From Eubacteriales bacterium (GTDB taxonomy: Bacteria > Bacillota > Clostridia > Oscillospirales > RGIG5299): a DNA stretch of 59,622 nucleotides. This document shows, piece after piece, positions 10,356-43,294 of the stretch (its first letter is position 1; each line of letters starts with the position of its first letter). The stretch is taken from assembly GCA_045542315.1 (NCBI GenBank), contig JAZQKU010000060.1:1-59622 (forward strand), given 5' to 3'. The notes under the pieces were generated by a model, which worked only from the letters and a program-made list of their open reading frames with translations, searched no databases and was not told the DNA's origin. Made by a program: the position numbers and the translations under genes.

Positions 10356-12974
10356 ATGTTATTTCACGGAAAAACGGCAAAGGAAACGCTCGAAGCGCTT
10401 GAAACAGACGTAAAAAGCGGTCTTTCCGTCGCACAGGCAGAGGAAAAACGCGCAAAATACGGCTTTAACCGCTTAAACGAAAAGAAAAAGAAATCCACTC
10501 TTTTGCGATTTCTTGAGCAGTTTAAGGACGTTATGATACTCATACTCATCGCGGCGGCGATAGTATCCTTTACGGTTGCCTGCGTTGAGCAAAACCCCAA
10601 GGAGTTTTTTGAACCCGCTCTTATACTTCTCATCGTTATCGTAAACGCGGTAATGGGCGTTTATCAGGAGGGCAAGGCGGAAAAGGCACTCGATGCCCTT
10701 AAAAATATGTCGGCTCCTCACGCAAGAGTAATAAGAAACGGTGAGGAAAGGATAATCGAAGCCGTGGAGCTTGTTCCCGGCGATATCATCAAGCTTGAAG
10801 CGGGCGATTTCGTTCCCGCCGATGCCCGCCTTATCCAAAGCGTAAGCTTAAAGAGTGAGGAATCTGCTCTTACCGGCGAATCGGTCCCCTCGGAAAAGGA
10901 TGCCGACGCCACGGTAAAGGAGGATTCTCCTTTGGGAGACCGTGCGAATATGGTCTTTTCGGGTTGCAGCATAACCTACGGCACTGCCACAGCGGTAGTC
11001 ACCGCAACGGGAATGGATACCGAAATGGGCAAGATCGCAAACCTTCTTTCCGATGAAAACGAAACACAGACCCCCTTGCAGAAAAAGCTTGCACAGCTTG
11101 GAAAATACCTCGGCATAGTAGCACTTGCGGCGTGCGCGGTAATATTCGTTGTCGGCATGGCAAGCGGCACTCCTCCCATGGAGATATTTATGGTTGCCGT
11201 ATCTCTTGCGGTATCGGCAATACCCGAGGGCCTTCCCGTAATAGTAACCATCGTGCTTTCAATAGGCGTTCAGCGCATGGTAAAGAAACACGCCCTTATC
11301 AGAAAGCTTCCCGCGGTCGAAACGCTCGGAAGCGCCTCTATAATCTGCTCCGATAAAACGGGAACCCTTACCCAGAACAGAATGACTCTCGTAAAGGCAT
11401 ACCTCGACGGCGGTGCCGATACCGAGGATATAACCGATTCGGTATCGGAGAATACGAAAAAGCTTCTTTGCTACGGCGCACTTTGCTGCGACGGCTCGGT
11501 GGTATTCAACGGCGACAAGGTCGAGCATCTCGGCGACCCCACCGAAACGGCAATCGTTTACGCCGCTCATAAAAACGGAATGCCCAAGGAGGAAATAAAC
11601 GAAAAATACCCCCGAATTGCAGGCATTCCCTTTGATTCCGACAGAAAGCTTATGTCCACCGTCAACGTAATCGACGGTAAAAAGACGGTAATAGTAAAGG
11701 GCGCATTCGATATGATGGCAGAGCGCTGCATATCGGGCGACCTTGAAAAGGCAAAGGAATACACCGAAAAAATGAGCGAAAACGCTCTCCGCGTTCTTGC
11801 GGTAGGTTATAAGATTATAGACGAATTGCCCGAAAATCTCACCTCCGAGGAACTTGAAAGCGGTCTTACCTTTATGGGACTTGTAGGTATGATAGATCCT
11901 CCCAGACCCGAGGCGAAGGTTGCCGTTGCCACCTGCAGAAGAGCGGGAATAAAGCCCGTTATGATAACGGGCGACCACGTTGTAACCGCAAAGGCGATAG
12001 CAAAGGAGCTCGGAATCTTCGAGGAGGGCGACAGGGCGATAACGGGCGCCGAGCTTGACAGAATAACCGATAGCGAATTCGATAACGTGATCGAAACGAT
12101 CTCGGTTTACGCCCGCGTTTCCCCCGAAAACAAGATAAGAATAGTAAGAGCGTGGCAGAGAAAGGGCAAGGTCGTTTCGATGACGGGCGACGGCGTCAAC
12201 GACGCACCCGCCTTAAAGGCTGCCGACATCGGCTGTGCTATGGGCATAACAGGCACCGACGTTGCAAAGGGCGCCTCCGATATGACCCTTACCGACGATA
12301 ACTTCGCAACGATAGTCGATGCGGTAAAAGAAGGAAGAGGCATATACGCAAACATCAAAAAGGTTGTAGGCTTCTTGCTCGGAACCAATATCGGTGAGGT
12401 CATCACTGTCTTTGCGGCAATGCTTTTATGGCAGAAAACGCCCCTTCTTTCAATGCAGCTTCTCTGGATAAACCTTGTCACCGACTCTCTTCCCGCAATA
12501 GCTCTCGGAATGGAGCCCGTTGAAAGCGACGTAATGGATAAGGCTCCCAAGCCCAAAAACGAGGGCATTTTTGCTCACGGACTCGGAATAAGAGTAGTGC
12601 TTCAGGGCTTTATGTTTGCCGTGCTCACCCTTATCGGCTACGTTATAGGAGAGGGCTTCGGCGGCGAGGCGGCGGGACAGACGATGGCGTTTGCCGTGCT
12701 TGCTCTTTCCCAGATAGTTCAGGCCTACAATATGCGCTCCGATCACTCCCTTTTCAAAATCGGAGTATTCACAAACGCAACCCTTAATAAGGCCTCGCTC
12801 GTATCCCTTGCACTTATGCTGCTCGTTTTGTTCACTCCCGTCGGCATCGCATTCGGACTTGTTATCTTACCGTGGTATTATTACCTCATAATTCTCGGAC
12901 TCGTTCTCGTGCCGTTGGTGATAATGGAGATCTCCAAGCTTTTGGGATTTATTAAGGCGCATAATCACAAATAA
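10356..12974 (+). CDS. P-type IIA cation (Ca2+/Mn2+)-transporting ATPase
   Basis: TGES, PEGL, DKTGT, MIDPPR, TGDGVNDAP, LWINLVTD motifs. Confidence 0.93.
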   Translation: MLFHGKTAKETLEALETDVKSGLSVAQAEEKRAKYGFNRLNEKKKKSTLLRFLEQFKDVMILILIAAAIVSFTVACVEQNPKEFFEPALILLIVIVNAVMGVYQEGKAEKALDALKNMSAPHARVIRNGEERIIEAVELVPGDIIKLEAGDFVPADARLIQSVSLKSEESALTGESVPSEKDADATVKEDSPLGDRANMVFSGCSITYGTATAVVTATGMDTEMGKIANLLSDENETQTPLQKKLAQLGKYLGIVALAACAVIFVVGMASGTPPMEIFMVAVSLAVSAIPEGLPVIVTIVLSIGVQRMVKKHALIRKLPAVETLGSASIICSDKTGTLTQNRMTLVKAYLDGGADTEDITDSVSENTKKLLCYGALCCDGSVVFNGDKVEHLGDPTETAIVYAAHKNGMPKEEINEKYPRIAGIPFDSDRKLMSTVNVIDGKKTVIVKGAFDMMAERCISGDLEKAKEYTEKMSENALRVLAVGYKIIDELPENLTSEELESGLTFMGLVGMIDPPRPEAKVAVATCRRAGIKPVMITGDHVVTAKAIAKELGIFEEGDRAITGAELDRITDSEFDNVIETISVYARVSPENKIRIVRAWQRKGKVVSMTGDGVNDAPALKAADIGCAMGITGTDVAKGASDMTLTDDNFATIVDAVKEGRGIYANIKKVVGFLLGTNIGEVITVFAAMLLWQKTPLLSMQLLWINLVTDSLPAIALGMEPVESDVMDKAPKPKNEGIFAHGLGIRVVLQGFMFAVLTLIGYVIGEGFGGEAAGQTMAFAVLALSQIVQAYNMRSDHSLFKIGVFTNATLNKASLVSLALMLLVLFTPVGIAFGLVILPWYYYLIILGLVLVPLVIMEISKLLGFIKAHNHK

Positions 12975-39454: not shown

Positions 39455-40543
39455 TTACTCCTTTTCCTCAAGCTGCTTCCTTTTGGCGCGCCTTACGCGA
39501 TTGATGTGCCGCTCGAAATCACCGTTGTTTATAAGCTCGGTAAGCACGTACTGAATAAAGGTCGGTACCGTGCAGGAATAAAAGCCGAGCTTCTCCTCAA
39601 ACTCCTTTACAAGATGAAGCGGCAGCACCATATATCCCACACGAAGCGACGGCGAAATAGTAATTGAAAAGGTATTTAAATATATAACGTTATCCTTTTC
39701 CGAAAGGGAAAAGAGAGTTTCAACCGGCTTTGCCGAAACGGAAAACTCCGATTCGAAATCGTCCTCAATGATATAGCGCCCGCTTTTGCTTGCCCAACGG
39801 ATATATTCGTGACGCTTTGAGGCGCTCGCGGTAACACCGCTCGGGTAGCTTCTGAAGGGTGTTGTGTGTAAAACACTCGCACGTGTTTTTGAAAGGGCGC
39901 CGCTTTCGATTCCCTCCCTTGTAAGCGGAAGCGACTCGTAAGCTATATCCTCCGCTCTGTATACCTGCTCGATTTTTTTGTAGGAGGGTGCCTCAATGGC
40001 GTAGATCCGCTGTCTCCCCAAAAGCTCAACGATAAGACCGTATAAATACTCCGAGCCGGAGCCTATAACTATTTGCTCTGTGGTTACGTGAAGCGCTCTG
40101 TTTCTGGCAAGATAGCGCCGTAACGCCTCGCGGAGCGCTACAACACCGCGGTTGGGCGATTTTTCAAGAAGACTGTCGCCCTGATCGGTAACCACCCTTC
40201 TCATCGTCTTGCTGATTACCGAAAGGGGAAAGTCGGGACGGCTTTTTTCAACCTGCCTCACGCTATGCTCTGTGTGGCGCTCTTCCACGGCGGCAAAGCC
40301 GTCGGTCTGCCTGAAAATAACCACAAATCCGCTTCGCTCTCTTGCTTCGACGTATCCCTCGTCACAAAGAAGGGCGTAGGCATGCTCAACCGTAACGGTG
40401 CTGACGCCAACCTCCTCGGCAAGACTTCTCTTTGAGGGGAGCTTTGAATTATATGGGTAGTTTTCGGCAATTATATCCTCCCTTATCTGCCTGTAAAGCT
40501 GAAGATAGACGGGACGCTTTTCTTTATCGACTGTATAGTTCAT
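39455..40543 (-). CDS. MocR/PdxR-family GntR regulator with PLP aminotransferase-like domain
   Basis: KLPSKRSLAEEVGVSTVTVEHAY HTH, IIEDDFESEF, PSLRVGY. Confidence 0.9.
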   Translation of the reverse strand: MNYTVDKEKRPVYLQLYRQIREDIIAENYPYNSKLPSKRSLAEEVGVSTVTVEHAYALLCDEGYVEARERSGFVVIFRQTDGFAAVEERHTEHSVRQVEKSRPDFPLSVISKTMRRVVTDQGDSLLEKSPNRGVVALREALRRYLARNRALHVTTEQIVIGSGSEYLYGLIVELLGRQRIYAIEAPSYKKIEQVYRAEDIAYESLPLTREGIESGALSKTRASVLHTTPFRSYPSGVTASASKRHEYIRWASKSGRYIIEDDFESEFSVSAKPVETLFSLSEKDNVIYLNTFSITISPSLRVGYMVLPLHLVKEFEEKLGFYSCTVPTFIQYVLTELINNGDFERHINRVRRAKRKQLEEKE

Positions 40544-40591
40544 CTGGTTATATAAAATACTCCTTAATTGGTGATTGTTATATTATCAGAT
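40542..40591. promoter_or_regulatory. Candidate MocR/PdxR operator (inverted repeat)
   Basis: ATCTGGTTATATAA (40542-40555) vs TTATATTATCAGAT (40578-40591), 12/14 inverted match. Confidence 0.5.
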
Positions 40592-40636
40592 TTATTATAC
40601 ACTATTTAAGTAAAAAAGTAAAGGAGTAAATTTAAA

Positions 40637-41137
40637 ATGCAATCCAAAACAAAAAAGATAGTAATAGCGGCTTTGATTGCCGCACTTGCCTGCGTGGCAA
40701 CAATGATAATCAAGATACCCTCACCGTTAAAGGGCTATATCAACCTCGGCGACTGTATAGTACTTACAGCGGGCTGGATGCTTTCACCCGCCTACGGCTT
40801 CCTTGCCGCGGGAATAGGCTCGGCACTTGCCGACGTTTTCTCGGGATATCTGGTCTATGCTCCCGTAACCTTTGCCATAAAGGGTGCAATGGCGATTATC
40901 GCATTTTACGGCTTTAAGCTTTTAAACAAAAAATCTCCCGATCTTCTTTCAAAAATAATAAGCGGCCTCCTTGCCGAAACATTGATGATAGCGGGATATT
41001 ACCTCTTCGAGGGCTTCCTCTACGGCTTCGGAGCGTCGCTTGTAAATATCCCCGCAAATGCGGTTCAGGGTGTTGCGGGACTGATATTCGGCATAATCCT
41101 CATCAAGATCTTTGAAAAAAGCAAAATAGCGAAATAA
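40637..41137 (+). CDS. ECF transporter S component, probably vitamin B6
   Basis: GYINLGD, GIGSALAD, TFAIKG; divergent from a MocR regulator. Confidence 0.82.
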   Translation: MQSKTKKIVIAALIAALACVATMIIKIPSPLKGYINLGDCIVLTAGWMLSPAYGFLAAGIGSALADVFSGYLVYAPVTFAIKGAMAIIAFYGFKLLNKKSPDLLSKIISGLLAETLMIAGYYLFEGFLYGFGASLVNIPANAVQGVAGLIFGIILIKIFEKSKIAK

Positions 41138-41492
41138 AAAGATCCGCGGTGAATGGCGTTGTGTTCCTAAGGACACAACTCCAACTCTATTCGCCTGCGG
41201 CGAGTTATATTGCTACGCAGTGGTATTCGGCTTGCGCCGAGTGATATTCGCTTCGCGAGTTTATTGGGGGCGAATAGAATATAACTGCTCTGCTTGCAGA
41301 GCAATATCACTTTTGCACAGCAAAAATATCACGCTGTCGAAGACAGCATATCACTAAAAACTGTCAGGAAATGCGCACTTACTCACCATTGTATGTGTCA
41401 GCGCAACAGAAAAGAGCCGATACGGAATAAACTCCATATCGGCTTTTTTCATTGTCCTTTAGCACCCGAGGCTATTTCACCGCGGATCTTTT
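41137..41492. mobile_element. Putative non-autonomous element bounded by a long inverted repeat
   Basis: AAAAGATCCGCGGTGAA (41137-41153) vs TTCACCGCGGATCTTTT (41476-41492); internal hairpin array; no credible ORF. Confidence 0.45.
41187..41355. repeat. REP-like array of short palindromes joined by AGTGATATT/AATATCACT linkers
   Basis: Four hairpins in one orientation, three in the opposite. Confidence 0.75.
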
Positions 41493-41509
41493 ATTTTATC
41501 TTGCAATAT

Positions 41510-41571
41510 GAAAAAATTTATGATAAAATAAAAACAGAAAGTGAGGAATTAAAAATGAAATGTAACAACTG
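41510..41571 (+). repeat. 62-bp direct repeat, copy 1 (-10, RBS, first codons)
   Basis: Identical to 42326-42387. Confidence 0.9.
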
Positions 41572-42271
41572 CACAAACGAAGCAGAGAAAAAAGTGCTAA
41601 ATGCGCTTAAAAGTCCCTTGTTTTTTGCAATTACCATTTTGCTCACTGTCTTTGCGGCATTCAGGCTTTTGTCAGGTAAATTTTCTGTTATAGCTATATT
41701 GTTGGCGATTTTTGCGTGGATAGTATATTTAAGAGCAACAAAGGATATTTGCGATGTTAAAAATTTAAGAGTTTTAAGCGGTGTAATTTTTGCCGATTTC
41801 ATTAAAGGATTGGTTGGTTCTGTCATTCGTGCCATAACAGGCGTATTTATAATAATATCAAAGGACGCTCTTTTACAAAATTCCGAATTCCTGAATTATG
41901 TAAAAGAAGCTATGGAAACGAATGGAGGAAACTTTATTTTTGACAATTTGGAAATTGCAGTTGAGATAATTAGTGTATTGTATTTGATTTTCTGTATATT
42001 CGAGATTCTTATAAATCTGTTTGGCGTAAAATCTATTCATAGCTTTGTGAAATCTGTTTATAAGGGAGTAGAATCGGGAAAAATTGAAATTAAAAAAAGA
42101 AAAACCGCACAAGTTTGGCTTATGATATTCGGAATAATTTCTGCAATTGGTGCGTTAGCGACACTTATTACAACCGGATTCAGTGACTTTATTGGTTTTA
42201 TTGAACCGGGCGCATTTGCCGCAACTTGCATCTGCCTTTCCGTTTTTATCAAAAAGAATTTCAATAAATAA
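41555..42271 (+). CDS. Hypothetical membrane protein, paralog of 42371-43234
   Basis: Start MKCNNC with GAGG RBS; shared KSPLF, NLR.LSGV.FA, KS.YKGVE.G, WLM.FG, IKKNF. Confidence 0.8.
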   Translation: MKCNNCTNEAEKKVLNALKSPLFFAITILLTVFAAFRLLSGKFSVIAILLAIFAWIVYLRATKDICDVKNLRVLSGVIFADFIKGLVGSVIRAITGVFIIISKDALLQNSEFLNYVKEAMETNGGNFIFDNLEIAVEIISVLYLIFCIFEILINLFGVKSIHSFVKSVYKGVESGKIEIKKRKTAQVWLMIFGIISAIGALATLITTGFSDFIGFIEPGAFAATCICLSVFIKKNFNK

Positions 42272-42278
42272 ATATCCC

Positions 42279-42311
42279 AATCCCCGTCTTTTCAATAAGA
42301 CGGGGATTTTT
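42279..42311 (+). terminator. Intrinsic terminator
   Basis: AATCCCCGTCTT ttcaat AAGACGGGGATT followed by T run. Confidence 0.75.
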
Positions 42312-42325
42312 ATGTCTTTACAAAC

Positions 42326-42387
42326 GAAAAAATTTATGATAAAATAAAAACAGAAAGTGAGGAATTAAAAATGAAATGTAACAACTG
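42326..42387 (+). repeat. 62-bp direct repeat, copy 2
   Basis: Identical to 41510-41571. Confidence 0.9.
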
Positions 42388-43234
42388 TGGCTATGAAGAA
42401 GCTTCAAGCTTCAATTTCTGTCCCAAATGCGGAGCTCTCGCTCCAAAGGAGGAAGCACCCGCTTCGGAAGCGGCACCTGCTCCCACGGCAACCTCGTCTC
42501 CCTTCGTAACTCCAAAGCCCGTAAACGCGGCTGCACAAAAGGCTTTAACGGCAGTTAAAAGCCCGCTGTTTCTTGCTCTTTGCATTCTCGTTTCCGCTTC
42601 AACCGCGCTGGGAATGATAACAGGCGGTTTTAACGTTCTCGGCATTCTGGCAACCATTTTCCTTTGGCTTAGCTATGCCGCTGCCGTTAAAAACGAGTGC
42701 AGTGTCAGCAATCTCCGCTGCTTAAGCGGCGTCACCTTTGCAAACTTTGTAATACAGCAGGTGGTATACGCAATTTTTATATTTGTCGGCGCAATCGGTG
42801 CTTTCGCGTTTGCGATCGCCGGCGCAAGCTCCGAAATGTATGATAAAATAATCGAGGCTGTGGAGTTTGATGCTGCTACAGCGGAAATTATTGCGGCTAT
42901 GCAGGCTGCCGGAATTGGATTTTCCTTCTTTTTCATTTTGTTTTTTGCAATTTTTGCAATCGTCGGCATTGTCGGAACCGTAATCAACATTTTTAGCTGG
43001 AAAAAGATCCATAACTTCACAAAATCCCTTTATAAGGGTGTTGAAAATGGCGAGCTCGAGCTTAAAAGCACAGGCGCCGCAACCGCATGGCTTATGGTAT
43101 TCGGCGTGCTTAACGCGATCTCTGCGGTATTCTCGATCGGAGGTCAGGATATAATCCTTACCTTCCTTGCAACAGGCTCAACCGCCGCAGCACTGATAAT
43201 CGCTTCAATACTTATCAAAAAGAACTTCAAATAA
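42371..43234 (+). CDS. Zinc-ribbon membrane protein
   Basis: CNNCG...FCPKCG, Pro/Ala linker, about 6 TM. Confidence 0.8.
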   Translation: MKCNNCGYEEASSFNFCPKCGALAPKEEAPASEAAPAPTATSSPFVTPKPVNAAAQKALTAVKSPLFLALCILVSASTALGMITGGFNVLGILATIFLWLSYAAAVKNECSVSNLRCLSGVTFANFVIQQVVYAIFIFVGAIGAFAFAIAGASSEMYDKIIEAVEFDAATAEIIAAMQAAGIGFSFFFILFFAIFAIVGIVGTVINIFSWKKIHNFTKSLYKGVENGELELKSTGAATAWLMVFGVLNAISAVFSIGGQDIILTFLATGSTAAALIIASILIKKNFK

Positions 43235-43244
43235 TAACTGTCAA

Positions 43245-43281
43245 TAAAAATCCGCGGTGAATTTCACCGCGGATTTTTTTA
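43245..43281. terminator. Bidirectional terminator
   Basis: AAAAATCCGCGGTGAA t TTCACCGCGGATTTTT. Confidence 0.75.
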
Positions 43282-43294
43282 TTGTAATTTAAAG

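Follow-up and report, generated by a model that had tools for sequence, protein, structure and literature searches.

In the window (the whole analysed stretch of DNA, 59,622 nucleotides from a Eubacteriales bacterium), a gene for an ECF-transporter S component is followed by an intrinsic terminator that is split by a short gene-less insert, and this insert carries a two-armed array of mini-hairpins joined by a constant linker. The units, linkers and coordinates that the initial annotation had quoted for this array were all found in the sequence. The locus is organized as follows:

40637–41137, plus strand: upstream host gene for the ECF-transporter S component (open reading frame; PF07155, E 1.5e-35)
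41132–41154, plus strand: 5′ half of the split intrinsic terminator (inverted repeat), ending in the left copy of the AT duplication (41153–41154)
41155–41473, no strand assigned: gene-less MITE-like element of 319 bp with terminal inverted repeats (TIRs) of family B (full-length copies elsewhere)
41155–41182, plus strand: left TIR of 21 bp (41155–41175), extended into an imperfect end hairpin (sequence)
41182–41252, plus strand: match to Rfam family Gut-1 (RF01706), corresponding to the left arm (46.7 bits, E 1.9e-07; gathering score 50)
41187–41195, plus strand: 5′ side of the closing stem, doubling as the 5′ arm of hairpin 1 (sequence, fold)
41204–41265, plus strand: left arm, with heptamers at 41204, 41220 and 41241, a degenerate one at 41259, and mini-hairpins between them
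41269–41277, plus strand: array centre, complementary to 41187–41195 (sequence, fold)
41279–41354, plus strand: right arm, with inverted heptamers at 41279, 41304, 41326 and 41348 and three hairpins between them
41409–41450, no strand assigned: internal terminator-like hairpin near the right end (inverted repeat; terminator score on the minus strand only)
41453–41473, minus strand: right TIR, matching the left TIR at 14 of 21 positions (counted by eye)
41474–41497, plus strand: right copy of the AT duplication (41474–41475) and 3′ half of the terminator (inverted repeat)
43245–43283, no strand assigned: uninterrupted sister terminator that has the core in common with the split one, taken as a model of the empty target

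The insertion target was the terminator of the ECF S-component gene, whose arms (41132–41153 and 41476–41497) enclose the insert, which thus occupies the terminator loop. This insert is MITE-like: it has TIRs, a target-site duplication, copies at unrelated sites and no transposase of its own, and an ORF and domain scan detected no real gene in its 319 bp. Full-length copies at 84–86% are present on contig C43 of the window's genome and twice in G002. The internal hairpin near the right end may substitute for the broken host terminator. No match was found for the insert among plasmids or for one array pattern among viral contigs; 4 + 25 viral loci were covered by the generic array scan only. 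G003 and G004 were considered as empty alleles, as neither has an array behind the ECF gene, but their terminators and next genes differ, so they are not true empty alleles. Because other genes follow the ECF gene there, the block 41132–43283 may itself be an insertion or duplication. Two membrane-protein paralogues (41555–42271 and 42371–43234) are each preceded by the same 81-nt repeat and are bracketed by two copies of one terminator, and the divergent pair of GntR/aminotransferase regulator and ECF S component (39455–41137) is kept in both G003 and G004.

A scan for one right end of a related TIR family (A) recovered at least 119 stretches, at least 80 of them with long flanks and 31 with both ends. 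Among the matches listed, 30 of these 31 two-ended elements are bordered by a 2-bp duplication (left-side dinucleotides TT 21, AT 6, TA 2 and AA 2), and the flanks rebuild a stem of at least 8 pairs in 22 of 30 cases, as against 7% of swapped flanks. Other two-ended elements of the window's genome show the same picture (duplication in 9 of 10, stem rebuilt in 8 of 10). TIR variants differ among the sister elements, which are ~240 to 2370 bp long, and the same TIR ends enclose arrays, cargo genes or neither; in addition, these TIRs are missing from some arrays located 3′ of tRNA genes. The vehicle can thus be separated from the array, and the existence of array-less TIR elements indicates that the array is dispensable for the vehicle. 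Cargo of the sister elements includes four-helix-bundle genes as well as ORFs that we take, from their motifs, to be DUF559-like, RAYT-like and restriction-modification genes. For example, the 2368-bp element L106 has A-type TIRs, no array and two ORFs, presumably a restriction-modification pair. GTAG-footed REP-like hairpins are the cargo of four same-TIR elements (L082, L100, L084 and G000:C68:1329–2500), and the ORF in L082 and L100 is presumably RAYT-like, judging by an N-terminal motif.

Some copies appear with swapped flanks (G000:C43:25610–25929, C49:22641–22729 and C35:16329–16436; C57:11346–11697 and C96:2116), such that the left flank on one contig completes the terminator stem with the right flank on another, which reflects either recombination between copies or chimeric assembly. 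A different arrangement is seen at G000:C25:34276–35786, where three tandem arrays of the GTGAAAT type follow a tRNA-Ala gene and a partial duplicate of that gene's 3′ end. Each of these arrays stands behind a terminator hairpin and two are then followed by a small cargo gene, so that the locus resembles a cassette stack.

The combination of TIRs and a 2-bp duplication is a signature of DDE-type transposases. No autonomous element with these ends was found in the at least 80 long-flank loci or in the window's assembly (86.5% complete), and the long elements with A-type TIRs carry cargo only, among the 26 loci listed. A domain search of 50 + 399 genomes found no IS1182-type element bearing these ends. 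The domain PF13751 is missing from the window's genome; it was detected in 7 of 50 TIR-positive genomes, with ends of another type, and in 63 of 399 genomes of the class, where inspection of 30 loci gave no TIR match. Descent from an IS1182 element was rejected, the best TIR match in those 30 loci (some of them without both ends) having at least 8 mismatches in 21 positions and the ends differing also in 8 loci read by eye. Neither a tblastn search with seven PF13751 proteins against the loci and the genome nor a search for PF05598 (0 of 5) gave any match; PF00665 is missing from the window's assembly, and its only PF01609 gene is IS4-like and has different ends. Two further transposase loci were noted: at L207 (G200:C80), an IS1182-type transposase gene with ends of another type lies directly behind an octamer-type hairpin array, and at G000:C75:19932–21700 an IS200-like TnpA gene lies beside an intact-looking IS4-type transposase gene, unrelated to the array ends.

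Within the array, the linker had been described as a conserved 9-mer. Its conservation stands, but not its length: the constant part is a heptamer, and the flanking A/T pair belongs to the hairpin stems. The heptamers are spaced at variable intervals of 16 to 25 bases. The complementary 9-mers at 41187–41195 and 41269–41277 are present as claimed earlier; the sequence of the former varies by linker type, and its pairing partner varies along with it. The array region folds far better than its shuffled versions, both as RNA (z −4.11 on the plus and −3.88 on the minus strand, with 0 of 200 shuffles equalling it) and as DNA (z −3.50 on the plus strand, 0 of 200; z −3.16 on the minus strand, 1 of 200). 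On either strand, the inverted heptamers are predicted to be unpaired (0.75–0.89 versus 0.23–0.45). Five of the seven hairpins have a GNA or GNNA loop and two do not; in the left arm, these loops are found on the minus strand.

Although no named family had seemed assignable to this array, its left arm matches Gut-1 from end to end of the covariance model, with a score just below the gathering cut-off, and the right arm (41299–41363) gives a weaker match on the minus strand (33.5 bits). The array is a genuine member of Gut-1 carried in a MITE-like insert. Gut-1 matches number 44 in the window's genome, of which 19 pass the gathering score, same-type copies included, and a match is present in 29 of 151 genomes of the class; carriers of a sister terminal repeat are Clostridia MAGs. 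CRISPR arrays consist of constant repeats of 23–50 nt and unique, non-palindromic spacers. The array was rightly set apart from them: it has a 7-nt constant part, palindromic spacers and an inverted second arm, and no CRISPR family was among its Rfam matches. Gut-1, which Rfam classes as an sRNA, was described as a probable non-coding RNA from gut metagenomes only, according to the accessible part of that report (Weinberg et al. 2010, PMC2864571). It shares with the array in the window the three hairpins on a constant linker of the GUGA(A/U)AU type; its model covers a single arm, whereas the element in the window has two arms and a closing stem. The elements studied here also go beyond that description in being multicopy, lying in mobile-looking inserts, having more than 10 linker types and having a candidate protein partner. 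In 4 of the 7 RNA runs listed, contigs from RNA libraries contain only family copies of other organisms, in small shares, with strand, ends and level not given and with DNA possibly included; in the metatranscriptome contigs, depth is greatest over the left arm.

A generic scan yielded 81 two-armed arrays of many linker types, some loci being represented twice. More than 10 heptamer variants serve as linker; both arms of an array have the same type, which is independent of the TIR family. Parsing of 56 arrays gave 280 spacers, 241 of which form a stem of at least 3 pairs from their ends, as compared with 5.4% of shuffled spacers. A ladder of four-way junctions between the arms was considered and rejected: deviant left heptamers are rarely mirrored in the nested right ones (L3–R1 in 6 of 24, L2–R2 in 3 of 20 and L1–R3 in 1 of 15 cases), so a left-right ladder stem is unsupported. 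A closing stem of at least 7 pairs is present in 30 of the 56 arrays, its mean length being 7.4 pairs for an array's own sides, 7.9 for sides swapped within a type and 4.2 across types, a statistic that is mixed in that the parse took both orientations. The similar means for own and swapped-within-type sides, together with the lower mean across types, indicate that this stem changes between types and not within them.

Loop sequences are strongly biased to one strand. Among 770 distinct spacers there are 490 clean hairpins, the 280 unclean ones including chance chains. The strand reading the inverted heptamer has 156 GNA and 101 GNNA loops, versus 4 and 1 for the other strand (257 versus 5). 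The loops include 139 of the form cGNAg, and only 38 of the 156 triloops would correspond to cUNCGg RNA loops in the opposite strand. Mini-hairpins with GNA or GNNA loops are exceptionally stable in DNA and far less so in RNA, the comparison quoted in the accessible text being for a tetraloop (PMC13037366).

The initial annotation had offered three functions for the array, and of these the protein-binding scaffold is now the best supported, with PF05635 proteins (the S23p family) as candidate partners. On contig C12 of the window's genome, an array of the window's type precedes a PF05635 gene at about 10610–10966 (locus L243). Among 47 genomes positive for an array or TIR, 43 encode the domain (E 0.001), versus 125 of 399 genomes across the class (E 1e-15), a comparison in which the class-wide threshold is the stricter and related genomes are not independent. 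When repeated 7- or 8-mers were scored within 330 bases 5′ of the gene, scores of at least 7 were found upstream of 75 of 93 PF05635 genes in the discovery set and 48 of 59 in the held-out set (123 of 152 loci), the top score upstream of 150 random genes being 6.7. In a more distant PF05635 clade only 3 of 29 loci reached that score, and several of its genes proved on inspection to be flanked by inverted heptamer runs. In the Gut-1 types both arms lie upstream of the PF05635 gene. In the plain-tandem types the gene is flanked by one forward and one inverted arm, and such loci occur in Clostridia, viral contigs and plasmid records; the 6 plasmid records inspected, out of 31, are from Treponema, Nostoc, Planktothrix, Bernardetia, Monoglobus and Chlorohelix. 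The window's genome has 23 strict arrays and 3 PF05635 genes, and no protein matching the GTGAAAT-type arrays was found in its assembly (86.5% complete). A sister family has 8-nt linkers and a reversed arm order and is paired with a distinct PF05635 clade (L060, L323, L326 and L329–L332; L322, L324 and L327). PF05635 genes with heptamer arms were also seen within restriction-modification or DISARM-type plasmid operons (L483, L484 and L485).

The C12 protein is modelled with confidence (pLDDT 93.9) as four helices, and the model matches 2RLD (TM 0.92; five chains in the structure), 2GSC and Avd, the accessory protein of diversity-generating retroelements (4DWL, TM 0.80). Residue 4 (numbering of the C12 protein throughout) lies at the start of helix 1 and residue 65 early in helix 3, positions that would place both at the same end of the up-down bundle. 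In a structure of Avd with RNA, bases that are flipped out insert into clefts between the five protomers, according to the available text (bioRxiv 10.1101/2023.10.23.563531).

Two protein residues vary with two bases of the heptamer. The discovery set comprised 64 of the 93 loci, those whose array was of the hairpin type and could be placed in register manually; the remainder were tandem types, fragments and some weak arrays. In all 64 pairs, E or K at residue 65 goes with a pyrimidine at base 5 (34 pairs) and Q or H with A (30 pairs). This rule was fixed beforehand and then held in 44 of 44 usable pairs from 60 new loci, from which 1 locus too short, 12 tandem loci, 2 without an array and 1 of another architecture had been excluded; L416, one of the excluded tandem loci, was concordant on inspection. 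With 5 extra rows included, residue 65 tracks base 5 in 113 of 113 curated pairs over 5 changes on the tree. Similarly, residue 4 tracks base 1 (S with G, N or D with A) in 106 of 106 curated pairs over 7 tree changes, after exclusion of 7 rows that have a different base or residue. For each base a single column is free of errors, the next best having 10 and 13 errors; residue 55 (H/Q), tried as a code position, gave 10 errors and was discarded. The C12 protein has S4 and E65, the residues expected for the heptamer of the array in the window.

The putative code is a strong pattern with weak formal power, the phylogenetic test being underpowered. Independent pairs on starred branches of a quick tree are all concordant (3 of 3 for base 5, p 0.25; 4 of 4 for base 1, p 0.125), and all branches together give 5 and 7 independent pairs, respectively. 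Both columns were picked post hoc, residue 4 through a column scan, and held-out data served for the base-5 rule only; most of these held-out loci belong to the same clades, and the typing of the arrays was manual and not blind to the residue. Since array and gene are linked, matching at the level of clades could be explained by co-inheritance. The tandem array L485 (Chloroflexota) seems to break the rule, with E at residue 65 and A or G at base 5 in the assumed register. Because heptamer and two protein residues change together, the array is likely a binding site for a PF05635 protein, and we consider cognate binding by such a protein to be quite probable. The DNA-type loops and the predicted unpaired state of the inverted heptamers make single-stranded DNA the likeliest ligand and RNA its main rival: given binding, single-stranded DNA is favoured at rather better than even chances, RNA is a tentative possibility and double-stranded DNA a poor candidate.

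The array most likely functions as the cognate site of an Avd-like protein. In the reading that we prefer, and consider probable on balance, the two-armed Gut-1 copy in the terminator-splitting insert is a repeated recognition site for an Avd-like PF05635 protein, probably acting on single-stranded DNA. The protein would form a pentameric ring like those of 2RLD, 2GSC and Avd. Once a strand becomes unpaired, the mini-hairpins would fold out and expose 7-base stretches, four or five of them, for one subunit each, so that a pentamer could wrap one arm on the unpaired strand, with the inverted second arm providing the same site on the other strand. The weakest steps are the last ones, in which the complex might aid the spread or persistence of the module and a DDE transposase acting in trans might have moved the gene-less copy into the terminator loop.

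Four other explanations have to be weighed against this one, of which action as RNA deserves the most attention, although we regard it as rather unlikely. A structured transcript would arise by read-through, at the broken terminator or out of tRNA operons, and its heptamers could be bound by the PF05635 ring (for autoregulation or 3′-end protection) or its arms cut by RNase III, as in rRNA intervening sequences. Such a role would fit the sRNA class of Gut-1 in Rfam, insertion sites that are all at transcript ends, tandem arms that could pair across the gene they flank, and the family copies in metatranscriptome contigs with their depth over the left arm. It would also agree with RNA binding by Avd and with the heptamer repeats before the S23p gene and the RNase III-cut terminal stem of the Coxiella sequence, as far as the available text describes them (PMC4990558). 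However, the loop chemistry favours DNA mini-hairpins, the unmirrored deviant heptamers leave the ladder stem unsupported, many gene-bearing copies have a promoter-like site between array and gene, and the RNA contigs stem from copies of other organisms and may hold DNA. The heptamers could instead be double-stranded sites, either for a PF05635 repressor of the cargo promoter or as subterminal repeats for a transposase, with the palindromes secondary. Pairing of N, Q or H with adenine is common in the major groove, and arrays do lie just 5′ of promoter-like sites, but the variable heptamer spacing would ill suit a fixed reader of duplex DNA, most spacers close hairpins, and the heptamer type does not follow the TIR family; we judge this explanation very improbable.

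It is likewise improbable that the array is a functionless MITE hitchhiker, with stems kept by template-switch repair and the match to the protein reflecting shared descent only. The excess of gene-less copies over genes, the occurrence of the same TIRs without arrays and the small number of independent switches would all be expected of such a relic. Linkage alone, on the other hand, does not predict error-free tracking by one of ~120 columns through 5 to 7 flips, and template switching leaves the one-strand loop bias and the joint changes of the two arms unexplained. The least credible explanation, in our view a very remote one, is that of the initial annotation, in which the array serves a RAYT or IS200-type HUH nuclease in trans as a REP/BIME-like substrate. 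REP units have a conserved GTAG or GGAG foot before a conserved palindrome. The array has short hairpins with DNA-type loops, and some sister elements contain GTAG-footed hairpins with a RAYT-like ORF, but its own units lack a tetranucleotide foot and combine a constant heptamer with variable palindromes, the element ends are TIRs with a 2-bp duplication, and the co-varying partner is PF05635. Nor did the linked Y1/RAYT gene anticipated by that annotation materialize, the only Y1 gene of the incomplete assembly being an unlinked IS200-like TnpA (PF01797).

Among the known systems closest to these loci are the ORF-bearing intervening sequences (IVS) of 23S rRNA in Coxiella and Leptospira, which share the protein family (S23p/PF05635), the gene-adjacent heptamers and insertion at a hairpin, to judge from the accessible text (PMC4990558). 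In Coxiella, three or four heptamer repeats precede the S23p gene and the sequence is excised by RNase III; the repeats are not termed binding sites in the available portion of that source. The IVS layout, with a gene between inverted arms, was seen here in records from Clostridia, Treponema, Nostoc, Planktothrix, Bernardetia and Chlorohelix. The window differs from the rRNA IVS in that its site is the terminator behind an ECF gene and not rRNA, its heptamers are separated by mini-hairpins, its arms stand side by side with no gene in the copy, and long arm-to-arm pairing is supported neither by folding nor by variant matching. Avd (4DWL, 8UB7) has the same fold as the C12 protein (TM 0.77–0.80) at 13–14% identity, and is described in the accessible text as a pentamer that takes flipped-out bases between its subunits (bioRxiv 10.1101/2023.10.23.563531). 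In the ORF listings read, nothing next to the arrays stood out as a reverse transcriptase, a template or a variable repeat.

As vehicles, the elements resemble MITEs, minimal insertion cassettes and elements of the IS1182 family that target hairpins, among them IS1272/TnSha1, in being bounded by TIRs, lacking a transposase, carrying variable cargo and inserting into terminator hairpins. According to the available part of PMC4923244, IS1272 targets terminators and removes part of the stem without creating a duplication, whereas the elements here produce a 2-bp duplication in the loop, and their TIRs match no clostridial IS1182-type locus inspected. Bacterial heptamer repeats, namely the cyanobacterial STRR and the GGGAATC pairs of Xanthomonas, consist of about four 7-base units and often form inverted pairs just behind genes; in the accessible text they are plain tandem units without hairpins, unlike the array in the window, and that text names no link of the inverted pairs of Xanthomonas and Nostoc to PF05635 (PMC4692102). 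No publication joining Gut-1, PF05635 and a code was found in our literature search, subscription journals lying mostly outside its coverage.

More broadly, PF05635 proteins may be pentameric readers of single strands that span several phyla, each recognizing its own heptamer through a simple residue-to-base code. Gut-1 arrays, the arms of ORF-bearing rRNA IVS and many heptamer repeats would be their cognate handles, and protein and array together would form a mobility module that gene-less copies use in trans. We offer this generalization as a speculative one that may well prove wrong. Three orphans are brought together by the present findings: the Gut-1 'RNA' reported in 2010, the S23p/PF05635 proteins, which have solved structures but neither an assigned function nor a ligand, and the bacterial heptamer repeats. 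The terminator-loop-targeting cassettes with 2-bp duplications also move varied cargo genes among gut Clostridia, by means of an enzyme that was not found in our searches (the window's assembly being 86.5% complete). For the protein family, the proposal specifies a candidate ligand, a strand and two residues. If the code is true, these proteins would read single-stranded repeats in a compact and re-programmable way, and the classification of Gut-1 would have to change from a small RNA to a protein-binding element of mobile DNA.
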